Origin: Candidatus Spongiisociaceae bacterium
Lineage (GTDB): Bacteria; Actinomycetota; Acidimicrobiia; Spongiisociales; Spongiisociaceae
NCBI GenBank assembly: GCA_965219685.1
Contig: CBDCOH010000002.1
Span: 256,001-320,000, forward strand
Direction: 5' to 3'
Length of the DNA stretch: 64,000 nucleotides
Below the pieces are notes generated by a model, which saw only the letters and a program-made list of their open reading frames with translations, was not told the DNA's origin and did not search any database. Below are positions 13,925 to 32,496 of the stretch, in pieces. The position numbers were made by a program, and so were the translations under genes. Numbering within the stretch: the stretch's first letter is position 1; each line of letters starts with the position of its first letter.

Positions 13925-16531
13925 GTGAAGACCTTCGTCAAAGCGTTCGCGTTCCTGGTGTCGAGAGCTCCCTGGGCGGTGGTGGTAACCACGCTGGTCC
14001 TGTTCGGGATCTTCGGTGTCCTGTCCACCCAGGTCGAGATAGGCCAGGGCAACGAGGGCCTCTCGCCCGACAACCCGGAACTGCTGGCCACCGACCGGAT
14101 CAGCGAGTTGTTCGGCGACGACGACACCCAGGAGAGCGTCATCCAGGTCATCGTTCGCAACCAGGGCGGCGACGTCTTCACCAAGGATGCCTACGACGTG
14201 GTGACCGCCGTCAACTCCGTGCTGGAGAGTGAGGCCCTGGCCGGCAAGCTCTCATCCGTCCCCGGAAGGGGAGCTTCGTTCAGCTACCTCGACCCGGCCA
14301 TCGACATGGCCGACGAGGAAGGCGTCGCGGTAGCCGGCGACGAGGACGTGAAGGACCTGTACATCAAGGCCACCACCGGGCCGCAGGCCAACCCGCAGTT
14401 CGCCTCGCTGGTCAGCCGGAACGGGGACCCGTCCTCGGCGACGGCCCAGGCCGGTCTGATACTGATATTCACCCAGGTGCCGGTAGGGGTCGAGGAGGAG
14501 GCATTCGACGAGGCGATCGAGAACGATTCGGCGGTGGCGGACGCCCTGCGGTCCATACCCACCCCCGAAGGGCTCGAGGTCATTCCCTTCAGCTTCACCC
14601 TGCTCTTCGAAGATGCCGGTGACGCCGGGAGCGAGATAGGGCGGCTCTTCGGGATGGCGGCCATGATCATCCTCGTCATTCTCTGCTTCGTCTACTGGCT
14701 CAAGCCGCCGGGCAGGGCCGCCCTCGTCCAGTCGGGGCGCCGGACCCTCGCCGACACCCTGCTCACCCTGTTCACCATCTTCGCCGCCATCACCTTCATG
14801 CAGGGGATCGGGGTCCTGCTGGAACGAGCCGGGATCATCGCCTCCTTCAACAACGTCACCCAGATCATCCCCATCCTGCTCATCGGACTGGGGGTCGACT
14901 ACGGAATCCACATCACGACCCGGTACCGCGAGGAGATCGGCCGCGGGCAGGATGTGGACGGCGCCGCCCGCACCGCCATCGGCACTGTGGGGATAGCCCT
15001 GGTTCTGGCCACCGTGACCACCGCCATCGGATTCCTCACCAACATCTTCAACCCGGTGCCGGCGCTGAAGGACTTCGGGATACTGGCGGCCATCGGGATA
15101 GTCGCCTCGTTCGTCCTGACCCTCACCTTCTTCCCGGCCGCCCGCAAGATCCTGGATCGAAGGACCGAGCGGCGGGGCAAGCTCTCGTGGGCATTCCTGC
15201 GGCTGCTGATCGTGGCCCGGAAGGTGGACCGCCATGTCGAGTCCAAGGGCACCCTGCCCGTCGCAGGCATGAAAGCCAACTCGGAACGCCTGCTGCCCTC
15301 CCTGATCGCCCGCACATCGGTCTTCGCCGAGAAGATCCCCGTTCTGATGATCCTGGTGGCCATGGTGTTGGGTGGTCTGGGGGTATGGGGCCTCTCCCAG
15401 TTGGAAACCCGGTTTTCGTTCACCGACTTCCTGCCCGACGACGCTCCCGGAATCCGGGCGCTCGAGATACTGCAGGAGGAGTTCGGAGGGGGCTTGGGCG
15501 AGTCCACCCAGGTGTTGATCGAAGGCGACGACCTGTCCAGGCCGGAGGTCCACAACGCCCTGGTCTCAGCCAGTGGGCGACTGGCTGAGGTCGCGAACGT
15601 GCTTGTCTTCCCGACTCCGGCCGGACCGATCGCCTCTTCCAGGTCACCTATCTCGATACTCAACTCCCTGAACCGGGGCGGCCCCCAGGGTCCGCCGTCC
15701 GAACCGGTCGTCACTGCGGCCCGGGCCGCCGGTGCGGGCCAGGATCTTCGAGTCCCCGCCGATGCCGATGTCACCCCTCTCTGGGACGCCATGTTCGAAG
15801 CGGCCCCCCAGCGGGCGGGGGACGTTCTCCACCGCAATGGGTCGGGCTACGACGCCCTGCGTTTCGATATCGGCACCCAGGCAGGGGAGACCGGAGCGCT
15901 GCAGCTGCGACAGGACCTCCTGGACAACTTCTCGGAAGTCTCCGACCTGGGGGTCAGCGTGATAACAACCTCCACCGAGATCATCACCAACCTGATCGTG
16001 AAGGAACTGGCTGAGTCGCAGACGAATTCGCTGCTCATCACCCTGGTGGTCGCCACCGTCGTGCTGATGGTCAGCTTCTGGTTCGAGAACCGCAGGCCCT
16101 TCCTGGGTGTGATCACCATGATCCCCGTGGCCCTGGTGGTGTTCTGGGTCTACGGGCTGATGTACGCCACGGGCATTCCCTTCGGACCGGTGACGGCCAC
16201 CCTGTCGGCCCTGTCGATAGGAATCGGGGTCCCCTACACCATCCACATCGCCCGCCGGTTCGGGGAGGACCGGGTCCGCATGGAGAGCCTCGACGAGGCC
16301 CTGCGCTCCACGTCCCGCCACACCGGCGGCGCACTAGCTGGGTCGGCGTTCACCACCATGGCCGGGTTCGGAATCCTGATCAGCTCCAGGCTCGTACCCT
16401 TCCAGCAGATGGGCCAGGTAACGGTCTATGCGGTCGGGCTCTCCCTAGTGGCAGCCATCCTGGTGCTCCCGTCCCTGCTGGCCCTATGGGAGAGGTGGCA
16501 CCGTCGGAGGGAAGCAGCAAGAACCGCCTGA
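13925..16531 (+). CDS. MMPL / RND family transporter
   Basis: Two-fold repeat; 'GLGVDYGIH' and 'GIGVPYTIH', 'TTAIGF' and 'TTMAGF'. Confidence 0.9.
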   Translation: MKTFVKAFAFLVSRAPWAVVVTTLVLFGIFGVLSTQVEIGQGNEGLSPDNPELLATDRISELFGDDDTQESVIQVIVRNQGGDVFTKDAYDVVTAVNSVLESEALAGKLSSVPGRGASFSYLDPAIDMADEEGVAVAGDEDVKDLYIKATTGPQANPQFASLVSRNGDPSSATAQAGLILIFTQVPVGVEEEAFDEAIENDSAVADALRSIPTPEGLEVIPFSFTLLFEDAGDAGSEIGRLFGMAAMIILVILCFVYWLKPPGRAALVQSGRRTLADTLLTLFTIFAAITFMQGIGVLLERAGIIASFNNVTQIIPILLIGLGVDYGIHITTRYREEIGRGQDVDGAARTAIGTVGIALVLATVTTAIGFLTNIFNPVPALKDFGILAAIGIVASFVLTLTFFPAARKILDRRTERRGKLSWAFLRLLIVARKVDRHVESKGTLPVAGMKANSERLLPSLIARTSVFAEKIPVLMILVAMVLGGLGVWGLSQLETRFSFTDFLPDDAPGIRALEILQEEFGGGLGESTQVLIEGDDLSRPEVHNALVSASGRLAEVANVLVFPTPAGPIASSRSPISILNSLNRGGPQGPPSEPVVTAARAAGAGQDLRVPADADVTPLWDAMFEAAPQRAGDVLHRNGSGYDALRFDIGTQAGETGALQLRQDLLDNFSEVSDLGVSVITTSTEIITNLIVKELAESQTNSLLITLVVATVVLMVSFWFENRRPFLGVITMIPVALVVFWVYGLMYATGIPFGPVTATLSALSIGIGVPYTIHIARRFGEDRVRMESLDEALRSTSRHTGGALAGSAFTTMAGFGILISSRLVPFQQMGQVTVYAVGLSLVAAILVLPSLLALWERWHRRREAARTA
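16464..16531 (+). repeat. 68-bp direct repeat, copy 1 (3' end of the MMPL gene including its stop)
   Basis: Aligns ungapped with 18306-18373, about 9 mismatches by eye. Confidence 0.85.
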
Positions 16532-17662: not shown

Positions 17663-18210
17663 TCAGCGGCACGATGCTCTACAGACAAGCAGGCGACTGG
17701 TGTCGAGGGAGGCGATATGGATGTTGCTGGCTCGTTCGACGCCTATGCAGTCGTGGGTCGAGACCGGTAGCGGGCGCCGTCGACTTCGATGCTGCATCGA
17801 CCTTGGATCACGAAGATCAGTACGTCCTCTTCGGGGTCGATTGCGATCCTGCGAGCGTCGCCTGGTTGGAGGTTCACGTTCTTGATCACCAGACGTAGGT
17901 TGGGGTGGGACAGCATGGTTTCGCCGGATGAGGAGGCCAGCGATCCCTTGATCACGTGATGTCCGCCGAGGCGGGGGAGCAGGTGGGCGAGTGGCAGGTC
18001 GAGTACCCTGCCGATTCTCAGCAGAACGGGGAGCGAGGCGTGCGAGCGTCCGTTTTCGATGTCGCTGAGGTGAGCAGCCGAGATGCCGGCCTCCACGGCC
18101 ACCTTCCGCAATGTCAGCGACAGCTTCGTGCGTCGATCCCTCAGGCGTTCCCCTACCTCCTGGGCCAACATTTCCGAGGCTTCGCGGTTTCTTTCGTGCA
18201 GGGTCCCCAT
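17663..18210 (-). pseudogene. XRE-family HTH + cupin regulator, frameshifted near the C-terminus
   Basis: 'LRKVAVEAGISAAHLSDIENG..ASL'; cupin 'VLIFVIQGRCSIEVDG'. The tail 'DCIGV..H' continues in another frame from ~17760. Confidence 0.7.
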
Positions 18211-18305
18211 CGGTCAGAAGAGGGCAGGGCTGGAGATGATGAGGATCCGGCAGCATGTGTCCCCGGTGTGTCGCGCCTCATGTGTCTCGTGGGCCGCGTA
18301 ACTGT

Positions 18306-18373
18306 TGCCCCTGTTCCTACTGGCCCTCTGGGAGAGGTGGTACCGCCGGAGGGAAGCAGCAAGGGCCGCCTGA
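18306..18373 (+). repeat. 68-bp direct repeat, copy 2 (degenerate duplicate of the MMPL 3' end, att-like)
   Basis: See copy 1. Followed by hairpin CACCCGG-N8-CCGGGTG. Confidence 0.85.
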
Positions 18374-20693: not shown

Positions 20694-21780
20694 ATGACCG
20701 CTGACTCCCCGCCATCGTCGCTCACGTTCGCCGATCGTCGGATGTGCGCGAGTACCTCGTCGAGGCGCTGAAGCTCGACCTGGTGGGACCCGGTGTCGGT
20801 CACGACCTCGCCGATGAATTGCCCGGGTGGAGGAGACCGTCGAGCTGGTAACTGACCGGGTTCCTGGATCCCGTCGGACACGCCGTTCGAGGACCGTAGC
20901 GACGTTGACGAGTACGACTCCCTGGACGAGGTGCCGGACACCGCCGGGCTGGTCGAGGAGTCCGCCGACGAAAGGCGAGCGGCCAAGAAGGGTCTCTTCC
21001 CGTCTTCGATGGGTCTGAGCTTCCTCGTGTCCGAGGACACCTGCGCACTCGACCTGACGGTTCGGTGGGGCGACTAGACGCCTGGCGAGGCGGAGGACGC
21101 GTATGGCAAGCCGCTGTCCGTCTGGCAGAGGAGGGCGAAGGAGCGAACCGTGCGGGTGGACCTATCGGCTCCTCCCGATCACCGGGTTCCGGCGTCCGGC
21201 GGACTGCGGCTGCATGTCGTCTCCAGGCCGATCGATGTCGGGCGTCTGCCCGGTCCCCCCCGGCGGAATCAGGTCGGTATCTGTGTTCCTGGTCAACAAC
21301 CGGCCGCCTGTGGCAGTCAAACGCAACCGCTCGGGCACAGCTATCGCGCCTGGATCGACGCTCAGCGGGACAGACTCGCCGAGGAACTGCTGCGCCGGAC
21401 CGGTATCGCCGCCGACCGTATCGAGCGCGGGATCGAGCTGCTGGGCACCGATCCCGACGCGCTCCACGCCTTGTCGACGTGCTCTTTTTCCCGACGGGTG
21501 GCGGCAAGACCGAGGCTTACATGGGCCTGGCCGACTTCACCATCGTGTTGAGGCGCCTGCGTCACCCCAGCCGGAAGGGGAGGTACGGCGCGGGTGTGGC
21601 GGTGATCATGCGCTACACGCTGCGCCTGCTCACGCTCGACCAGCTCGCACGGGCATCCGGCCTCATCTGCGCGCTGGAACCGGAGCGCCCAGACAACCCC
21701 GAACGCTTCGGGGTGTGGCCGTTCGAGATAGGGCTGTGGGTGGGCAAGGCGGCTACCCCGACCATCATGGGCCGCAAGGT
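20694..21780 (+). pseudogene. drmA: DISARM helicase DrmA-like remnant (frameshifts, stops, internal deletions)
   Basis: 'LKLDLVGP', 'FPSSMGLSF', 'VSVFLVN', 'LFFPTGGGKTEAYMGL', 'MRYTLRLLTLDQ', 'FEIGLWVG..ATP'. Confidence 0.85.
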
Positions 21781-21935
21781 TGACGAGGATCGAGAATCCG
21801 ACATCGGGGCGGTGGTTGACGAACGCTCCGGACGGCGCTTTGTTGAGATCCTCCTCCAAGGGCGCTCGGTAGATGGTGATCCCGAGCATCTCGCAGACGG
21901 TGTCGAGATCGAATACCGGCCCGGTGCTTCCCGCC
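21776..21935 (-). pseudogene. ImmA/IrrE-family metallopeptidase fragment
   Basis: 'GPVFDLDTVCEMLGITIYRAPL...SGAF......ILVN'. The HExxH part is missing. Confidence 0.5.
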
Positions 21936-21999
21936 GTGTTGGACCAGCGTCCTGGGCGGACTGTAGCCGCCTTGGACTGTGGATAGCGGTATACGAGGG

Positions 22000-22030
22000 T
22001 TGACAGTTGTCACAGACTGTTGATATAACT
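22000..22030 (+). promoter_or_regulatory. Promoter of the DUF222-HNH gene: TTGACA-18-TATAAC, overlapping a TGTC-N12-TA (PafBC/RecA-ND-like) motif
   Basis: TTGACAGTTGTCACAGACTGTTGATATAAC, ending 6 nt before ATG 22036 (leaderless). Confidence 0.55.
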
Positions 22031-22035
22031 ACATC

Positions 22036-23319
22036 ATGGAACACGAACAGTTGTTCGCTGGTATGCAAGGTCCAGGACGGGTCAGGGCAGCAGGCGATCC
22101 CGTCGGCCGGGTTGGGGATTGTGATGCTGCGGAGCGGATGGCCGCGCTGGTCGACGAACTCGACCGGTTCGTGGCTGCGGAAACGTCCCGATGTCATGCC
22201 GAGGAAGCCCTCGGGTTGTTGGGACGGTTCCAGACGCGTCTGTCCTCGCACATGTGTGACCTGGCCCGCCGGGCTACTGAGACGAACCCTGATACGGACG
22301 CCGTGAGGGTTCTGAAGCAGAAGTCCCGCCTCTCGGGGCGGGACGCCAAGCGGATGGCCAAAGTTGCCGAGCGGCTGCCGGATTTGCCGAAGGTGGCGGA
22401 GGCGTTGGCGGAGGGGGAGATAACCGTCGATCATGCCAAGGCCATGGCCGACGCCGCGGACAAGGTGGGACCCGATGCGGTCGATTCCGACCCTGAGTTG
22501 TTGGAGGAAGCCACCCGGACGGGACCGGATGGGTTCGCGCGCAAGGTTCGGGATTGGTCCAACCAGAAGCTGATCGAAGCCGGGGTCGACGTCCTGGAAC
22601 GTTAACGCCGGGAGAGGGAAGCGAAACTGTGGGTGGACAAACGCAGCGGGATGGGGATGATCTTCGCGAAGCTCCCCGCCGCGCAGTTCGTACATCTGCA
22701 GCAAGCCGCGGATGCCCACTACCTGGAACTTCTACGCCGCGATAGTGTCGGCGGGCTCGCCCCCGACGAGGTGCGCACCCCCGCTCAGCGGATGGCCGAC
22801 GTTCTCGTCGAACTGTTGACCAACCTCGACCCGGACACCGGGGAGATCCTCAACGGGGCGGGAGGGCGAGCCAAGGCATCCACCCAGGTGATCATCGTGG
22901 CCGAACAAGGCGTAGTAGACGGAACCAAGCCCCGGGGTCAGGTCGAGATCATCGGAGCAGGTCCCGTACCACGGAAGATTCTCCGAACCCTGTCACCCGA
23001 CACGGAGTTGGCCGCCATGATCTACGACCGGGCCGGGCGGGTCCTGTGGCTAGGACGCAACCAACGCCTCGCCAACGCCGCCCAGCGCCTCGCCATAGCG
23101 GTGCGCGACGGGGGCTGCTTCCAATGCGGGACCCCGATGCACCGCTGCGAACTCCACCACATCCGAGAATGGCACCGCGACGGCGGCCGCACCGACATAG
23201 ACAACCTCGTGGCTGTCTGCCGCCGCCACCACAGACAGCTCGAGACCGAGAATCTCGTCGTGCAGCCCGATCCGACCGGTGGATACCAGGCCGTACCACG
23301 AGACGGACCGCCTCCCTGA
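22036..23319 (+). pseudogene. DUF222 + HNH endonuclease (13E12-repeat-like) with an in-frame nonsense codon
   Basis: 'ALAEGEITVDHA', 'QRMAD', 'QRLAIAVRDGGC..C', 'CELHHIREW..GG.TDIDNL..VC..HH'. TAA at 22603-22605; the frame continues. Confidence 0.88.
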
Positions 23320-25371: not shown

Positions 25372-27309
25372 CTAATGGAGAAAGGAGTACATCGCCAATG
25401 TCTCCGGCTGTTCTGATTCCGAAAACACAAGAACTGTGTATATACCGCCAACGGTCACGAGTTGTCGGAGGTCGGCTTCGATGGTGACACTTCCATCTTC
25501 ATGAACGGCCCATGAGTCGGCTACCACATCCTCCAAGGCGAGATCTACATAATAGGAGCCGGGAGGCGGTGGTTCTAGTACTTGAGCGATCGGTCCGACA
25601 CTCTCACAGGCATCCGTGAAGCCGCCACCCACACAATATGATGTGAGCCTGGAGATTTCCTCAGGTCGTTTCGAGGTTGGTGGTGAGTCATAGTAGACCG
25701 CTAAGTGACCGATCTCGACTCCGGATTGTGGCCGCAGCCAAAGCCTCAGTATCCCGTCGTCAAGACGTGGCGATGTTGCGTGGTCCAGCCGCGTGTATTC
25801 GAAGTGTTGATAGTACGCAACCTGGCTGTCAGTGAAGGCTATTCCAATGTTGACGGTGTCGTAGATGGGGTCAAGAATCGTATCACGATGTCCCCAATTC
25901 GCATGAGCGTCGTCATACACCATGGACCACTGGAGAGTCTCGATCGCGCTGAGCACATCGATGTCTCCACAGACGACCGTCGGCTGATCACAGTCTTGTG
26001 ATCCCCTGATCTGCCCGGCGGCGTTCTCGGCGATCACACCGACACCGCCAGCTTGTGTGTACAGCATGTACGGCTTCAATCCATCGGATGTCCAGTGCCC
26101 TGCCAGATATCCGTAACGTACCGAGTCTTCGGCATGGGCCTGTGCCGCCTGGTTGGATCCAAGCCGGACTGCCGGCACACCATGTGATTGACGGTCCAGG
26201 TTAATGAGTCCTATGGCAAACAGCCGAAGATCCTGAAGGCTTGGAGTCTCTGGTTCATCCAGCGGGTTGAGGTTTGCATCCGGCTGGAGAGCTGCTATGT
26301 CCATGTTGATGAAGTAGGAGCTGGCGGGCAGCTCAGAGCCTGCCCAGACGACAAGTTCGTAGATGCCGGGTCCGGGAACCCTTCCGGCTAGAGATGCGAC
26401 TATTGAGGTGGTCTGACCGTCACTTGACCAATGGTCGGCTACGATCGCTGAGTCAGGTAGGTTCAGTATTTGACCGCTGTCAGGTGGTCTATGGATGGAT
26501 AGCACCCTGTCCCGGAATAGGCTATCTGTAGGTGAGGCAGGGGGCGGATAGTAGTAGATGTCGACAGATTCGATCGACAGACTACCGTAGGGGGCGAGTT
26601 CGAGACTTAGGAACCCACCTGAGACGGACGGTTCTTTGAGATATGTAACCTGCTGATGGTCCAGTTGTAGAATCACTACAAACGTGAAGTCGGTATATGC
26701 GACCCCCACGTGTAGTTTCTCCCAGTCCGCAAACAGCAGACTCTCTGGATCCTGGGGACGGGCTTCCGCTAAACGCGAGTCCACATAGGCCGACAGGTAA
26801 CCTGCCGCGTCGGTTCTCTCACAAATCACGAGGGCGGATCTGCACTGAACGATCTCAGCCGCGTCGAAATAGCCGCGGAAGTGGCTCGACGACAGGATGG
26901 ATCCTCGCCCTCCGGTCGCCGTGTAAACCGCATCGATCGGTAGCCCATCTTGGGTGTAGTCGATCAGACCCAAACGGGCAAGGGCCTGCTCAGCCACGTA
27001 CTGAGCGGCGACACTGTCCCCGACTTCCAGAGGGGAATACCCCAGTTCCATCCTTCGACGGTTGACCCGGTCCACAGCCAACGTCCGAAGCGACGAGACC
27101 TCGACCGACGAAACAACATCGAATTGAGCAAGTGACTCATCCTCGAGCGGGGCGGTCGGGACCGGGCCGTCGCTCCGTGTCGACTCCCGGTCCGGAATGG
27201 GTTCACTCGGGTTTTCGAAGTAGACGACCTGACCATCATCTCCACATGCCGGAACCAGGAAGACCGCGACCACAGCGCTCAGGCAGACCCACCTGCGAAA
27301 CACGCCCAT
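25372..27309 (-). CDS. Lipoprotein with two CAP (SCP/PR-1) modules
   Basis: Lipobox VPA-C. Module 2: 'LINLDR..HG..AAQAHAED..HW..DG..AEN..WGHRDTILDP..VNIG'. Module 1 is similar but lacks the His residues. Confidence 0.8.
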   Translation of the reverse strand: MGVFRRWVCLSAVVAVFLVPACGDDGQVVYFENPSEPIPDRESTRSDGPVPTAPLEDESLAQFDVVSSVEVSSLRTLAVDRVNRRRMELGYSPLEVGDSVAAQYVAEQALARLGLIDYTQDGLPIDAVYTATGGRGSILSSSHFRGYFDAAEIVQCRSALVICERTDAAGYLSAYVDSRLAEARPQDPESLLFADWEKLHVGVAYTDFTFVVILQLDHQQVTYLKEPSVSGGFLSLELAPYGSLSIESVDIYYYPPPASPTDSLFRDRVLSIHRPPDSGQILNLPDSAIVADHWSSDGQTTSIVASLAGRVPGPGIYELVVWAGSELPASSYFINMDIAALQPDANLNPLDEPETPSLQDLRLFAIGLINLDRQSHGVPAVRLGSNQAAQAHAEDSVRYGYLAGHWTSDGLKPYMLYTQAGGVGVIAENAAGQIRGSQDCDQPTVVCGDIDVLSAIETLQWSMVYDDAHANWGHRDTILDPIYDTVNIGIAFTDSQVAYYQHFEYTRLDHATSPRLDDGILRLWLRPQSGVEIGHLAVYYDSPPTSKRPEEISRLTSYCVGGGFTDACESVGPIAQVLEPPPPGSYYVDLALEDVVADSWAVHEDGSVTIEADLRQLVTVGGIYTVLVFSESEQPETLAMYSFLH

Positions 27310-27669
27310 CGTTGCCCTCTCCCTATTACCTAGCCATGGCCCCATCGGTGGTCGTGAGTCCTACCCCTCGTCCCGCTGCGCACAGGCCGTGTCGCCGACC
27401 TTCGAGGTGTGGCAGTCGGGAACAGTTTTGGTGGTTGTCGCAGGTCGATCTTGTGGGAGACGTCGTAGCGGCTAACGATCACGATCCGCACAGTCCCAAG
27501 GACTCCCACCTGGTCCACGCCGCTGGATAGTAGTTGGATCCGGGCTGACTTCGGACCCGGCCCCGGTGCTGGCTTACTCCGGGTCCGAGCGGAGTTGCCC
27601 GCTCGGAAGCTGGTGTGGTTCCGATGTTCCGCCCTACTTTCCCGACGCACGATTCCGGACACCGGTCGA

Positions 27670-27950
27670 TCAGCTTCGAGCATCGAAGCGAGAGAACCGG
27701 CGCACCGGTCCTTGGGATACTCGGGCAACGGAGGCCCGCTCGCACACCTCGCCGTTGTGAACGACGAGCACGCGATCCGCAACGTGGCTGACCACTCGCA
27801 GGTCGTCCGTGATCAGCAGCACCTCGATGCCCAAATCGCCGTCGGAGCCCCGAGCGCCGCTCATGTTCTTGGACCCGAGGCCCGGTGAGTGCCCTGAGCG
27901 CGCTCGTCGCCGGACCGGCTACCGAACGCGTGGCGAGAACTTCCGCCAGG
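27670..27950 (-). pseudogene. Peptide ABC ATPase C-terminal remnant
   Basis: 'LGIEVLLITDDLRVVSHVADRVLVVHNGEVCE' (degenerate ITHDL...ADRV.V..G.IVE). Confidence 0.6.
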
Positions 27951-28426: not shown

Positions 28427-30313
28427 TCATGTGTTTGCGGCGAGTCCGCTCTTGTGGGCTTTGGCATATACCTCGTACACGACATGGTCGACGCTTGCGT
28501 GGAAGGCTTGGACGGCGGCGTTCAAGTCGTCGAGAGCGGCGAGCCTTTCGAACCCGGTGTTGGGAACTGGAATACGTAGCCCGGCTAGCACCTCGCGGGC
28601 CCTGTCCGCGATTCGGGGCGCCGCCCGTTGTGGGCCTTCACCGAGAACACGTACGGGCTTCGGCACAGGATGGTCACGTACGTGTTCGTAGAATTCGGAT
28701 GCCCGATCGGCGACCTCCTCCAGACGGGCCTCGGTCACCGAGTAGGTAACGCCGGTCTCGGCCCGGTTGTCCCACGCTTCGTTGACCGTGTTCGCTTCCG
28801 TGAGGATGTCGTCCACCGACTCTTTGAAACGTGTGAGGCCTTCTATGTAGGCGACCGCCTCGTCTACTAGTTCGACCGCCGGCCGGACCCGTGTTGTGGT
28901 TGTTTGGCCACTGACGGTCAGGATCCCGCCAGGTTGGGTGTACGCTTCGATGTTCCTGAGAACACGGGCGACGCTTGCATTGAAATCGTCGGCGACGTTG
29001 TTGAATCCTTGGAGAGCAGCCTGCCGCTCGGATCCGTCGTTCGGAGCAGGAACCCTAAGCCCATCCAGAATCGCGGCCGCCAACTCGGCAAGGCGGGTTG
29101 CTAGACGGAGCGGACCGCCCGGCTCCCCATGTATCCCCCTGAGAGGAATGGGCACACGCTGGAATATGACGGCATCCGCGAAGGCGTTCGTCTGTTCCTT
29201 GATGGCAACAAGGGACGCCTCAGTTTCCGAGTAGATGTTGCCTCCCTCGACGCGGGCGTCCCAGATCTCGTTGATTCTGTTCATCTCCCGAACTAGGTTG
29301 TCCACCGTTTGTGGGAACCCGCTCATAGCTTCCGCATAGGCGACTGCCACTGGCAGCAGGACCACAGGCTCGTCCTCTGGAAGGCTCGTGGCAACCGCCG
29401 ACACCGCGATCGTCATCGGTTCCACAGCGATCGTGGTCTGGGGAAGGGTTGTCGTCGAAGCCAGTGTGGTTGTCCTCGCAACAGATGCTGCCGTTTCAGT
29501 ACCGCCCCCGCAGCCTCGAGCCAACGCTCCGACAAGGACCGAGAGCAGAACGAGAACGAGAGCGACACGAGCGCAGCCCTTAACGACTCGAGCACACCCA
29601 CCCCGTCTGCTAGTCGCTGTTATTGTCGGCTGCGAGGCTGCTGGCCTATGAGCGCTCGGCGGAGACGACTTGACGTGACCAGATTCGAGCGGACCATTGT
29701 GGACTGTGGAAGCTCTGGGACGCCTCGGCTGCGGTGGACGTGAAGGCTGAGACGGCGGACGTGAAGGCCGAGGCTTGGTCTTTATTGTCCCCGCGGAGTG
29801 TGACTCGGGCGGCCGTGGTAGGGATGAGCCTTCTACCAACCTGATGAGCTTTCTCTTGTAGTCCCATGCATCGCTAGTCAGCGCCCGGACGCTTTCCACG
29901 ACGGAATGCCTGTCAACGACCCCAACTTCGGCCATGACCTCGCGGTTCTCGAAGAGACCGGCTCCTGTGAGGTTCGCCGAGCCGGTCAGGACCGTCGGTG
30001 GTGACGTGTGAACTACCCACGCCTTGAGATGCGCGGCCGCCGCCCCGCCCCGTCTGCGATACCAATTCTTGACCTCCACATCGTCACGACGGAGGAACGC
30101 GGAAGCAACACGCCGGTCGGAATCCGTTGCATTAGCGAAATAGCGTGGCCGAGCATCGCCTATCACCAAGGTGACCTCTCGGTCACGGGTCTGGCCGGCT
30201 AACCAGGCTATACCCTTCACGCTGGCATACCCGACAGCCACCGTGACCTTCGTGTTCGGATGAGAGCGCAAGAAGGCAGCTATCCGGGTTGAGGCTCCAC
30301 CCTGCGGCGTCAC
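28427..30313 (-). CDS. PLD-superfamily (single HxK/GSxN) nuclease domain + TM helix + duplicated helical C-terminal domain
   Basis: 'VAVGY', 'HLKAWV...VLTGSANLT..GL..N.E'; Pro-rich linker; TM 'ALVLVLLSVLVGAL'; two ~130-aa internal repeats. Confidence 0.8.
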   Translation of the reverse strand: MTPQGGASTRIAAFLRSHPNTKVTVAVGYASVKGIAWLAGQTRDREVTLVIGDARPRYFANATDSDRRVASAFLRRDDVEVKNWYRRRGGAAAAHLKAWVVHTSPPTVLTGSANLTGAGLFENREVMAEVGVVDRHSVVESVRALTSDAWDYKRKLIRLVEGSSLPRPPESHSAGTIKTKPRPSRPPSQPSRPPQPRRPRASTVHNGPLESGHVKSSPPSAHRPAASQPTITATSRRGGCARVVKGCARVALVLVLLSVLVGALARGCGGGTETAASVARTTTLASTTTLPQTTIAVEPMTIAVSAVATSLPEDEPVVLLPVAVAYAEAMSGFPQTVDNLVREMNRINEIWDARVEGGNIYSETEASLVAIKEQTNAFADAVIFQRVPIPLRGIHGEPGGPLRLATRLAELAAAILDGLRVPAPNDGSERQAALQGFNNVADDFNASVARVLRNIEAYTQPGGILTVSGQTTTTRVRPAVELVDEAVAYIEGLTRFKESVDDILTEANTVNEAWDNRAETGVTYSVTEARLEEVADRASEFYEHVRDHPVPKPVRVLGEGPQRAAPRIADRAREVLAGLRIPVPNTGFERLAALDDLNAAVQAFHASVDHVVYEVYAKAHKSGLAANT

Positions 30314-30721
30314 GACATTCCTGATACTGGGCGTCGGCGGGCGAACTCGTTCGTCGATGAATCTCGCTCAGTCATAGAAAGCCGCCATCTCCGTGTTCTT
30401 GCTGACCAGTTGCAGACAGCGAGTGCCGACTCCATAAGCTTCCCTGAGTGGGTGGGAGTGGTCGGCTTGGTAGAAGCGTCGTATGTCGCGGCCGTGGCCT
30501 TGGATTGTGGTTCGATCATGCCGAGTTGTTCGAGGACCTGTACTTCGCGACCTAGGAAGCGGGCACCGGTTCCGATGCTTCCTCTTGTGAAGCGAACCTG
30601 GACCGTTGTTCCCCTCAGCGTCTAGAGGCAGCGGCCTTCTCCTTCCGCCAGCCGGGTTCGAACTCTAGCTTCGGGACTTTTCGCGAAAGGTGGGTAATAA
30701 GGGGATCCGTTTCGGCCATCC

Positions 30722-31780
30722 CTAGCCGGCTGCTTCTGCGTATGCGTCGGTCAGCGCATCCAGAAGTTCATCGCTGAAGTCCCGGGTGCTGTTGCCCTGA
30801 CCGATCCGGACGGGTGCTAGTTTCTCGATCCGTTCGAGGTGGCTGGGCGCATTTCGCTCCAGCACGCTGCGCCAGAACTGCAGCGACGCGCCTCCCTCGT
30901 TCCAGATGGTTGCCAATGCCACCCTGTCGGAATCGAGAAGCGGACTCAGCACGAACCGCTCACCTCTCTTGCCCTCGGTCGAGGAGAGTGTTGCTAGCCC
31001 GCGGTTCTCCAATTCGCGGGCCCATCGCAACAGCCGACGGAGATCCTTCTGGTGTTCTTCCGGAGCTTCGGCGATGCTGGCCTTGAACCTCTCGCTGCCC
31101 TTGTGGTAGGTCGTCTCCGATTCCCGGCGGCGTGTCGCCTCTATGGTCACCTCGTGGCGCTCGGGTGTGACACGCTGGGGGATCGTCACCGATGTACCGG
31201 CGACGTTGAAGGAACTGACCGCTACCAGGTCGATGACCAGTTTGTCGGTGACGTGTTCCAGATACGCCACCAACGTCATCAGCTCCGGAGGCACAGTGTC
31301 GAGGACGAAGACGAGCCGGAAGCGTCCCTTGCCCAGATGCTCGTCGAGAGCCGCTGTGAACTCGTCGGCGTCGAACACGTCTTCCTGTACCGAGCCGACC
31401 GCACCGACCAGGGACTCGTAGCCACGCCGCCGGAGGCTGGCGCCGACTAGGTCCTCGAGTTGTTCTCTGGTCGTGCCGTGGAGGTGCGCCGCGTAGGCCA
31501 GGATCTGTGCCACCACCGCCCGGCGGGCGTCTCTGTTCTTCTCGAGCTTGATCTCGATAATGACCGGCCGGCCCGATGTCTCCACCCCCACCAGGTCCGC
31601 ATATCCCGATCCCATCGGAACTTCCCGGCCGAGGATTAGCAGCGGCGGTGCCCCCGACAGTGGCAGCATCTCGGGCGTCTGCTCGATCAGGTCATGCAGC
31701 GTTGCCTCGTCGGGGAACCCGTCGGGCATGCTCAGCGTCCAGCCCTCACCGTCTTCCGTCCAGATTCCCGACATCGTCAT
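30722..31780 (-). CDS. NucS/EndoMS-like PD-(D/E)xK endonuclease domain protein
   Basis: 'EATLHDLIE..P', 'REV.....ADLVGV...G..VIIEIKL', 'VVAQILAYAA'. Confidence 0.8.
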   Translation of the reverse strand: MTMSGIWTEDGEGWTLSMPDGFPDEATLHDLIEQTPEMLPLSGAPPLLILGREVPMGSGYADLVGVETSGRPVIIEIKLEKNRDARRAVVAQILAYAAHLHGTTREQLEDLVGASLRRRGYESLVGAVGSVQEDVFDADEFTAALDEHLGKGRFRLVFVLDTVPPELMTLVAYLEHVTDKLVIDLVAVSSFNVAGTSVTIPQRVTPERHEVTIEATRRRESETTYHKGSERFKASIAEAPEEHQKDLRRLLRWARELENRGLATLSSTEGKRGERFVLSPLLDSDRVALATIWNEGGASLQFWRSVLERNAPSHLERIEKLAPVRIGQGNSTRDFSDELLDALTDAYAEAAG

Positions 31781-31818: not shown

Positions 31819-32496
31819 TTACTTGACCCCGCTCTGCGGCAGCATCAGAACTCGACCGTCAGTCGCCTTGGCTACCACCAATGGCGGCATGCTTGTATGC
31901 CGCCACCTGTCGATGTCCGGCGAGTTGCCCTTGTACTTGTTGCACCTGGGGTGAGCTGCCTGGAGGTTCTCCATCCCGTGCAGCACGCTGGTGTAGTAGG
32001 TGCCCTGCCGGGCCTTGCCCTGATCGCTGAGTACGAACACCGCGAACCGTTTGGGCACCACGTGCTCGACGTGTGCTCCCTTCATCTTCATCCTGACCCC
32101 GCACAAGCCGCACCGGGTCCCGTCCCGGATGTTCAGGTACTTAAGGACCCTGCGGCGATGATCAGGTCTCCAGCGGTCTCTTGCGTCCGGTTCGTCCAGT
32201 TCCAGATTCCACCGCCAAACCCCATCGACAGCTGCGAAGGCTTTCCTCAGCAGCCCCTCGGGAGGATCGGGGGGCGGCCTGCTGAACGGGCACACAAGAT
32301 CGTCTTCGACAGCCTCGACCGGGTTGTCCTCTGCGGGGTCGTCGATGGGCACGATCGAGCGGCACTTGGGAAATGTCGAGCAGCCCCAGAACTCGTTCCC
32401 GGCGTTCTTGCCGCGTTTGGCGACCCTGCGCACCATCGGCGCATCACACTTGGGACATGACAATGCCCGATCGCCATCAGACAACACGTCTGACAC
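31819..32496 (-). CDS. Topoisomerase-type C4 zinc ribbon + HNH endonuclease
   Basis: 'CPKC...M..R......FWGCSTFPKC'; 'RDG.RC.LC...HVEHVVP...ENLQAAH..CN..KG'. Confidence 0.85.
   Translation of the reverse strand: MSDVLSDGDRALSCPKCDAPMVRRVAKRGKNAGNEFWGCSTFPKCRSIVPIDDPAEDNPVEAVEDDLVCPFSRPPPDPPEGLLRKAFAAVDGVWRWNLELDEPDARDRWRPDHRRRVLKYLNIRDGTRCGLCGVRMKMKGAHVEHVVPKRFAVFVLSDQGKARQGTYYTSVLHGMENLQAAHPRCNKYKGNSPDIDRWRHTSMPPLVVAKATDGRVLMLPQSGVK

Follow-up and report, generated by a model that had tools for sequence, protein, structure and literature searches.

What does a protein do that carries a nuclease-like domain at one end, a large helical domain at the other, and a membrane helix between them? 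This question is raised by a gene in a 64,000-nucleotide stretch of DNA (hereafter the window) from a Candidatus Spongiisociaceae bacterium of the class Acidimicrobiia. The gene occupies positions 28427..30313 of the (-) strand, with a GTG start and its stop codon at 28427-28429, and encodes a protein of 628 amino acids (aa). An earlier note on the same sequence had suggested that an outside sensor might switch on an inside nuclease by dimerization, or that the protein might guard DNA entry sites at the membrane. The reading that is tentatively preferred here, and that has nearly an even chance of being right, is that of a membrane-confined nuclease that would act on incoming DNA. Such a protein would be analogous but unrelated to the phage-defense nucleases SNIPE and Mpr, with the outside part serving as an adaptor rather than as a dimerization switch.

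Domain architecture of the 628-aa protein

The five-part architecture proposed in the earlier note, consisting of a phospholipase D (PLD) domain, a linker, one transmembrane (TM) helix, a Thr-rich stalk, and two repeats, is borne out by sequence, alignment, and structure models. Residues 1-161 (29831..30313; this and all following parts of the gene lie on the (-) strand) correspond to a PLD-fold domain with a single HKD motif. This domain is predicted to be cytoplasmic, and its assignment draws on Pfam matches below cut-off, an AlphaFold2 (AF2) model, Foldseek, and a predicted homodimer. The HxK motif, H95-L-K97 (30023..30031), falls within residues 91-98 of the predicted dimer interface, and the GSxN motif, G111-S-A-N114 (29972..29983), is followed by N123 and E125, in alignment with the GSSNLT...N.E of SauUSI. 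Residues 162-246 (29576..29830) make up a basic tether that is rich in Pro, Ser, and Arg (net charge of +11, 21% Pro) and ends in 'RRGGCARVVKGC'; from residue 164 onward, this linker is predicted to be disordered (predicted local distance difference test, pLDDT, <50). The TM helix spans residues 247-265 (29519..29575), which are helical in the model. On the predicted outer side, as indicated by sequence, alignment, and model, residues 266-316 (29366..29518) start with 'RGC' and continue as a Thr-rich stalk. Two modeled four-helix-bundle repeats complete the outside part, or ectodomain: repeat 1, residues 317-462 (28928..29365), contains the invariant loop 'RVP..RG.HGE.GGP', and repeat 2, residues 478-621 (28451..28882), is additionally supported by structure comparison. 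Between them, residues 469-474 (28892..28909) read 'GQTTTT', of which T471-473 are invariant in the alignment.

The joining of these parts in one gene is genuine and not the product of a chance read-through. A word-indexed search returned 13 homologs, nine of which align over 99% or more of the protein's length with identities of 49-80%, the remaining four being shorter or fragments. Intact full-length genes are found at two other loci (L007, 626 aa, and L038, 597 aa), and the N-terminus of the protein aligns with those of its homologs. Two further full-length forms, P0015 and P0016, were recovered by scanning 1.84 billion representative sequences with the ectodomain, and a metagenome scan with the full-length alignment found one locus only. 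At locus L005, two open reading frames (ORFs) had suggested a split gene; the record has a stretch of N at the break, and the matching cluster P0005 is unbroken, with 605 aa. All three named relative records are metagenome-assembled genomes (MAGs); one carries the label Acidimicrobiia and another Candidatus Spongiisociaceae.

Predicted pairing of PLD domains through the catalytic face

Residues H95-x-K97, G111-S-A-N114, N123, and E125 are nearly invariant across 14 aligned sequences, and none of the 13 PLD-bearing rows of alignment A1 has lost the catalytic motifs. In the AF2 model, residues 1-161 adopt a PLD fold with block pLDDT values mostly between 76 and 94. The top Foldseek matches of this model are SauUSI (7clg_B, E of 8.3e-4), Zucchini (4gel), NgoAVII (4rct), Nuc (1byr), and BfiI (2c1l), all with a probability of 1.00 and E values from 8e-4 to 9e-3; NucT is also matched, and phospholipase D (7e0m) appears at rank 17. 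Although the scores of the protein itself against Pfam are low, relatives pass the PLDc_2 cut-off (P0124 with 37.5, P0126 with 28.3, and P0136 with 28.0 bits). Based on the diagnostic residues, these relatives, and the model matches, the assignment of a single-HKD PLD fold may be considered safe. Among defense-system profiles, PADLOC matches ZacB (1.9e-5) and DrmC (2e-5). Sixteen relatives were scanned in the same way (14 PLD-bearing and two ectodomain-only), and 13 of the 14 PLD-bearing ones give weak matches to ZacB, DrmC, or PbeA over the HKD region (E of 1e-5 to 1e-12).

In fold, in the HxK...GSxN...NxE signature, and in a predicted symmetric dimer formed via the motif face, the domain resembles Nuc, BfiI, NgoAVII/NgoFVII, the N-terminal domain of SauUSI, Zucchini/MitoPLD, and NucT. 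It differs from these single-HKD PLD nucleases in that the C-terminal 'GC' tail anchor and the ectodomain are found only here, and sequence similarity is marginal. Restriction enzymes of the NgoFVII/BfiI/SauUSI type add a DNA-recognition or helicase domain, and the protein misses the RE_NgoFVII cut-off. A search with the PLD domain across 401 genomes of the phylum matched 12 genomes beyond that of the window, outside the class, at E ≤ 1e-5, and 10 of these 12 matches lie within open frames of 1024-1242 aa; the two such proteins that were examined combine the PLD domain with SNF2/ResIII helicases, as in SauUSI. The domain is therefore grouped with the PLD nucleases of the restriction type, although it might act on a lipid. 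The Asp of HxK(x)4D, which is typical of lipid PLDs, is unconserved in the family, as it is in SauUSI. Zucchini/MitoPLD is itself membrane-anchored.

Single-HKD PLD nucleases need a partner, and dimers of Nuc-type PLDs have been solved. The dimer modeling that the earlier note had recommended was carried out with two copies of residues 1-165 and yielded a symmetric homodimer with a score of 0.73, relative to 0.08 for the best control. Of 30 proteins with structures solved as pairs of one chain, 20 attain this mark, as does one of 23 solved as single chains. Three runs share at least 92% of their contacts, with a partner pLDDT of at least 87, and the predicted interface consists of residues 91-98, 110-113, and 122-126, that is, the catalytic motifs. 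This passing score may reflect memory of, or likeness to, the solved Nuc-type dimers. The PLD domain is thus predicted, from the model, to pair via its HxK/GSxN face and to form one active site.

Membrane anchor and topology

Residues 247-265 constitute the only strongly hydrophobic segment of the protein, with a 19-residue Kyte-Doolittle mean of 2.52. A single hydrophobic peak is seen in 13 of 14 aligned rows, the fourteenth being an N-truncated fragment, and pairwise identity within the TM region averages 0.66. The net charge of the 25 residues that precede the helix is +3 to +8; for 12 of the 13 rows, that of the 25 residues after it lies between −2 and +1 (P0005 has +5). At the N-terminus of the PLD domain, no hydrophobic segment is present, and some relatives are soluble and consist of the PLD domain only. 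Homologs of the repeats, on the other hand, carry export signals of their own, either a short basic tail followed by a TM segment (L002, L004) or a lipoprotein-type signal (L003, P0034, P0040, P0057), the lipobox having been judged by eye. Because of the flanking charges, the lack of an N-terminal hydrophobic segment on the PLD domain, and the export signals on the repeat homologs, three lines of sequence evidence agree in supporting a single-pass N-in, C-out (type II) protein with the PLD domain inside and the repeats outside. The placement of these two parts on opposite sides of the membrane in the earlier note is thereby supported.

In the full-length subfamily, conserved Cys residues flank the helix, with 'GGC..KGC' before it and 'RGC' after it (residues 237-270, 29504-29605). 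These residues could provide a dimer contact, an acylation site, or a metal-binding site. A PADLOC match to PD-T4-6 (E of 2.3e-10, residues 141-312) spans the low-complexity linker, TM helix, and stalk, is found in none of the 16 relatives scanned, and was rejected as an artefact of composition.

A constant PLD-anchor unit with variable outside parts

To delineate the wider family, the PLD domain was searched on its own, which recovered 59 short relatives of 158-282 aa. As judged with a regular expression, the HKD pattern is kept in 55 of these and in 13 of 14 further long relatives. A hydrophobic segment follows the PLD domain in 44 of the 59 short relatives, and in 35 of those 44 it extends to the last residue, forming a tail anchor. 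Among the same 44 proteins (within P0065-P0123), 39 place a Cys where the TM segment starts, typically as '[RK][RK]xGC'. The linker ranges from 17 to 101 aa across the family (median of 44), is net positive in 66 of 72 proteins, and measures only about 20 aa in the commonest relatives.

All 14 further long relatives have a TM segment after the PLD domain, followed by C-terminal parts that differ. P0134 ends in a leucine-rich repeat (LRR) region (LRR_8, 30.1 bits vs a cut-off of 27); P0125-P0129 have a weakly immunoglobulin-like domain, with a weak Big_1 match in P0125; P0126 and P0130 have a degenerate GmrSD_C/DUF1524-like domain (35% identity to P0049, E of 1e-11); P0137 has a multi-TM RDD domain; and P0136 has a C-terminal domain of unknown kind. 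In P0124, a second, degenerate PLD domain precedes the tail anchor. In a quick tree of the PLD domains, the different extensions fall on separate branches. This tree has 86 rows, namely 84 of the 88 family proteins and two helicase-fusion outgroups; P0014 and P0120 were left out as too short and P0122 and P0137 as lacking the motif, and P0012, which has no PLD domain, is not among the 88. Since its architecture labels misfile the truncated fragments P0011, P0013, and P0065, the tree is used only for the separation of extensions by branch.

From these sequences, the constant unit of the family is the PLD domain, a basic tether, and a 'GC'-TM anchor, with an outside part that is optional and variable. 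The ectodomain is regarded as an optional add-on because the anchor is kept across short and long relatives while the C-terminal parts differ or are absent. Relatives with other ectodomains, among them an LRR, lend the family the receptor-like look noted earlier; most relatives have no ectodomain at all.

The ectodomain derives from a widespread envelope module

The two repeats are 41% identical over 148 aa (E of 2e-33), and each is modeled as an up-down four-helix bundle, with a mean pLDDT of 85.7 for the ectodomain. The repeat consensus given in the earlier note is right in substance, with 'N..WD.R' and 'GLR.P.P.DGS.R' as motifs of the module's own, but the domain is not unique to this protein. 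The ectodomain matches 52 representative clusters. Most of these proteins are short, carry one or two repeats without a PLD domain, and are anchored in the membrane or resemble lipoproteins; three PLD-free paralogs are present in the window's own genome. Matches to the module occur in 98 of the 401 class genomes (one of them weak, in an unpublished genome, G254), and in 43 of the 65 genomes of family f12, whose genomes are about 1 Mb in size, it exists as one protein of about 206 aa. The module is not covered by any model of Pfam, NCBIfam, PHROGs, or PADLOC. To judge from these sequences, the ectodomain is a borrowed Acidimicrobiia envelope module that lacks a Pfam family.

A TM protein with one repeat, about 206-281 aa long, is conserved throughout the class and retained even where the genome measures about 1 Mb and has 29% GC; examples lie at L004 (1471-2316 (-), equal to G000:C2 ~2634337-2634744), L032, L034, and L036. 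A small glutamine-synthetase-like gene lies near this protein in four of five loci scanned. The one-repeat protein is an uncharacterized core envelope protein.

Structurally, each repeat resembles the sensor domains of PcaY (6s18; Z of 13.4, rmsd of 3.5, 139 residues aligned), Tar (1lih; Z of 10.9), and Tsr (2d4u; Z of 10.7), but the Z values of 10-13.4 to PcaY, Tar, Tsr, and NarQ are common for helical bundles, and designed bundles and talin score equally. The highest Z values among the structure matches of the repeat in fact belong to de novo designed bundles. A Foldseek search with the ectodomain alone gave no match at E ≤ 0.001, and its best ESM Atlas score, 0.83, is below the lead level of that tool. 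The likeness to the domains of PcaY, Tar, Tsr, NarQ, and QseE is that of an extracytoplasmic up-down four-helix bundle of about 140 aa adjoining a TM helix; unlike these chemoreceptor and kinase domains, the protein has two tandem bundles on a Thr-rich stalk, with their own motifs and no sequence or Pfam relation.

In line with the suggestion of the earlier note that the repeat domain be sought in fusions to other effectors, P0034, with a lipoprotein-type signal, and P0049, with a hydrophobic export segment, were found to join the same module to a GmrSD_C/DUF1524 nuclease domain, which would lie extracellularly. These fusions indicate that the module accompanies nucleases on both sides of the membrane.

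Proposed role and comparison with known systems

In the membrane-confined nuclease reading, a cytoplasmic single-HKD PLD domain of the restriction-nuclease kind would pair with a second copy into one active site while an 85-aa basic, disordered tether links it to the membrane. On the outside, this member has gained a Thr-rich stalk and, from the Acidimicrobiia envelope family, two four-helix bundles. Anchoring would keep a poorly specific nuclease off the nucleoid and near the point at which phage or plasmid DNA enters. The ectodomain would serve not as an on-switch but as an adaptor, directing the enzyme to particular sites or partners in the envelope, and the protein would act alone, as a horizontally acquired single-gene unit. 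The low GC3 of the gene, its patchy distribution, and the lack of shared neighbors speak for such mobility. DNA-entry guarding is, by this inference, the better half of the earlier proposal and the dimerization switch the weaker one; its experimental precedents are in the unrelated proteins SNIPE and Mpr.

SNIPE (PD-lambda-1) of E. coli is a single-gene system that consists of a membrane-bound GIY-YIG nuclease, which cuts phage DNA during injection; removal of its TM segment is toxic, and anchoring prevents self-cleavage (PMC13190303). Its envelope-side region is variable and resembles the host membrane proteins FtsB, PilO, and PspB (PMC13190303). The protein of the window shares with SNIPE a single pass through the membrane, a predicted cytoplasmic nuclease, and a single gene (PMC13190303). 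The folds of the two are unrelated: a PLD domain stands here in place of DUF4041 and GIY-YIG, with no Pfam or PADLOC match to the SNIPE domains; the order is opposite, with the nuclease N-terminal and the anchor C-terminal; a disordered basic tether is found where SNIPE has a folded DNA-binding domain; and the outside part is large, folded, and well conserved, whereas the adaptor region of SNIPE is fast-evolving. The likeness is one of logic only; the ectodomains of the family, copied from surface proteins of the lineage itself, could play a comparable adaptor role.

Mpr of Mycobacterium smegmatis is a membrane-anchored and oligomeric nuclease that requires both membrane localization and nuclease activity for phage defense (PMC12596739). 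Both are membrane-anchored, known or predicted nucleases of actinobacteria (PMC12596739). Mpr, however, combines an N-terminal metal-dependent exonuclease with DUF4352 and has neither a PLD domain nor a four-helix-bundle ectodomain (PMC12596739). DUF4352 gives no Pfam match in the 628-aa protein, which has no sequence relation to Mpr. A further comparison is to DrmC (of DISARM), ZacB, and PbeA, which show weak profile likeness over the HKD region and act within multi-gene systems. No partner genes of these three proteins are found among the neighbors scanned, and membrane anchoring is not a known feature of any of them. Around the gene, PADLOC on five neighbors returned PDC-S11 and a PtuB-like match and no Drm protein, and Pfam at the other loci gave no conserved partner, whereas DrmC of DISARM is encoded together with DrmA/DrmB and a methylase.

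No library model, and no paper listed in full-text literature searches, describes a family that joins a PLD domain, a TM helix, and four-helix bundles, in agreement with the statement of the earlier note that it knew of no such system. The fold, the topology, and the modular ectodomains are new; the kind, a membrane-confined nuclease, is already known; and the protein belongs to no described system. Place-based, membrane-confined nucleases have only recently been demonstrated (SNIPE, PMC13190303; Mpr, PMC12596739). If the preferred reading is true, place-based discrimination of self from non-self would have been reached with a third, unrelated nuclease fold, in the opposite topology, and in a barely studied and largely uncultured class. 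The tail-anchored-only, four-helix-bundle, LRR, and catalytically dead forms offer a natural series for probing the envelope-facing part. As a by-product, a class-wide Acidimicrobiia envelope domain without a Pfam family is now defined.

A bolder idea, which is unlikely, takes the family as Toll-like single-pass immune receptors. Here, a constant cytoplasmic PLD nuclease on a flexible tether would be combined with interchangeable outside domains (tandem four-helix bundles, LRR, immunoglobulin-like, or a degenerate DUF1524 domain). These copies of surface proteins of the cell itself would mislead or dock the receptor-binding or ejection proteins of phages, such that adsorption would gather the nuclease under the point of injection.

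Weighing the evidence and the alternatives

Several observations weigh against a membrane-confined nuclease acting on incoming DNA. Sequence support for the PLD domain of this protein is weak: PLDc_2 matches residues 40-130 with an E value of 2e-4 and 21.7 bits, below its 27-bit cut-off, RE_NgoFVII scores 17.8 bits (E of 2.1e-3), below its cut-off of 23.8, and the best sequence match in the PDB, to the PLD domain of SauUSI, has an E value of 0.039, with HxK, GSxNLT, and NxE aligned. PDB entries 4ggj and 9lkx name Zucchini/MitoPLD a cardiolipin hydrolase, and a lipid substrate is possible. Mean pairwise identity is 0.65-0.70 for the ectodomain and 0.64 for the PLD domain, which is unlike an arms-race interface. 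Searches of phage and plasmid records, viral contigs, and PHROGs gave no match to the PLD domain or to the ectodomain. No RNA run is among the listed sequencing runs that contain the stretch; DNA runs labeled sponge metagenome contain part of it. Finally, the conflict-gene setting, which in itself speaks for the reading, is uneven. Of ten loci examined, seven (the window, L005, L007, L038, L020, L021, and L023) have toxin-antitoxin, restriction-modification (R-M), or defense-candidate genes within about 3 kb, but L022 and L025 have only ordinary metabolic genes nearby, as does L024 save for a DUF222-HNH gene two genes away. This suggestive association with conflict genes is anecdotal, as it rests on ten loci without a control.

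The same side of the balance holds a branch formed by P0015 and the gene at L007 (7839-9716 (+)), the latter from a Candidatus Spongiisociaceae MAG. Both have the full PLD-TM-two-bundle architecture in intact ORFs of 581 and 626 aa, but the catalytic His, Lys, and Ser have been replaced by Pro, Glu, and Pro; in this branch, the HxK and GSxN sites read 'PVEAW' and 'GP[AS]NL'. The ectodomain in this branch is 50% identical, relative to 32% for the PLD part. By its sequence, the branch is a putative naturally inactive form, and since the catalytic residues are replaced in intact genes, catalysis would be dispensable there.

This loss of catalytic residues with retention of the ectodomain is also a point in favor of a different account of the protein, in which its main job lies outside the cell, as an envelope four-helix-bundle protein with a structural or binding function in the wall zone, and the PLD domain is accessory or decaying. 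Conservation of the ectodomain matches or exceeds that of the PLD domain, and the repeat family is class-wide and retained in 43 of the 65 f12 genomes of about 1 Mb. However, the catalytic motifs persist throughout alignment A1 and in nearly all short and long relatives (13/13, 55/59, and 13/14), the commonest form of the family is a PLD domain and anchor without ectodomain, and the genome already has three ectodomain paralogs that lack the PLD domain. An outside job as the main role is accordingly given a slim chance. An enzyme of lipids, improbable on balance, would be a tethered PLD dimer that hydrolyzes membrane phospholipids or transfers their head groups, either as a triggered, membrane-damaging effector or in envelope lipid metabolism. 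The domain is held beside the membrane, by a linker of only about 20 aa in the commonest relatives, and its superfamily has lipid enzymes, of which Zucchini/MitoPLD (4ggj, 9lkx, 'mitochondrial cardiolipin hydrolase') and phospholipase D 7e0m are among the matches. Nonetheless, the top fold and sequence matches are nucleases, the nearest outgroup is the N-terminal PLD domain of helicase-nucleases, the Asp typical of lipid PLDs is unconserved, and a patchy spread (10 of 401 genomes) is ill-suited to a housekeeping lipid role.

The dimerization switch of the earlier note, by which an outside ligand or phage part would bind the ectodomain, join two chains, and only then render the PLD halves active, loses ground and is now doubtful. 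In its favor, a single-HKD domain requires a partner, the predicted interface is the catalytic face, typical binding domains stand outside in relatives (LRR_8 in P0134), and each of the repeats is similar in structure to four-helix-bundle ligand-binding domains known from chemoreceptors and sensor kinases. Yet 35 of the 44 short TM-bearing relatives end at the TM segment and have no ectodomain, the isolated PLD domain is predicted to dimerize unaided, and a disordered tether of 17-101 aa could relay proximity but no conformational signal. The structural resemblance is of the degree common to any helical bundle, with no Foldseek match at E ≤ 0.001, and the ectodomain is not fast-evolving but conserved. 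Last, the protein might serve another DNA transaction at the membrane, for example the processing of taken-up DNA or of DNA ends in transfer, rather than defense. Both the fold and the sequence matches include NucT of Helicobacter pylori, a protein that functions in natural transformation. Among the neighbors scanned, however, no gene for competence or transfer was seen, and a patchy, island-like spread fits accessory conflict genes better, which leaves this account very unlikely.

Genomic setting and neighboring genes

The PLD domain occurs in 10 of 401 genomes of the class, including four of the five other genomes of the window's own family. The G+C content at third codon positions (GC3) of the gene is 0.66, compared with 0.76-0.90 for most genes of the window and about 0.8 for the flanking genes, and tail-anchored relatives likewise have a lower GC3 than their neighbors. 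Genomes of the same genus or family are too diverged for synteny to define the borders of an island, with the flanking MMPL protein at 53% identity. No operon partner is conserved in the loci compared, and the six window neighbors gave no match across 35 loci. A 69-aa ORF that overlaps the start of the gene (30310-30519) has no counterpart at the other loci and no family match. A scan for promoters and terminators gave counts at or below shuffle expectation. ARAGORN placed an 86-nt tRNA-Lys(CTT) at 30544-30629 (+), between the gene and its upstream neighbor; it has no Rfam match at E ≤ 1 and is probably false, and no argument for a tRNA-linked island is therefore made.

The neighbors differ from locus to locus. 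They comprise a DUF433 and PIN-like pair at L007, DUF2971 and HigB/HigA at L005, an Eco57I/MmeI-type methylase at L038, DUF4411 and an M78 peptidase at L020, an AAA_21/AAA_15 ATPase at L021, and a Type I R-M system flanked by two PLD copies at L023. In the window, a PDC-S11/NucS-like nuclease candidate and a Zn-ribbon-HNH gene lie upstream. The former, directly upstream at 30722-31780 (-), encodes 352 aa with a match to the PADLOC candidate PDC-S11 (E of 1.2e-16) and a NucS/Cas4-like nuclease stretch. The latter, co-directional at 31819-32496 (-), encodes 225 aa with a Topo-I-type zinc ribbon (39.5 bits vs 32) and an HNH/PtuB-like part. This pair, which is not found with the PLD gene at the other loci, may be a separate defense candidate.

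Downstream by 1.1 kb and co-directional with the PLD gene, 25372-27345 (-) encodes a predicted lipoprotein of 657 aa without a Pfam family, which has the lowest GC3 of the region (0.61) and a weak NCBIfam match to SEC10/PgrA surface exclusion (28.2 bits vs 70). Two adjacent ORFs, 22036-22605 and 22633-23319 (+), together make up an actinobacterial-type DUF222 and HNH gene, which is probably disrupted. By eye, 21065-22003 (+) contains a helicase-like 'PTGGGKTEAY' and 27670-27864 (-) resembles the tail of an ABC ATPase; these two frames, which have no Pfam match, are possibly gene remnants in a decaying variable region. At lower positions of the window, a 72-nt direct repeat with 86% identity (16460-16531 and 18302-18373) duplicates the 3' end of the MMPL gene at 13925-16531. 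A helix-turn-helix gene (17743-18210) lies between the two copies, and the arrangement looks like the scar of a small insertion.

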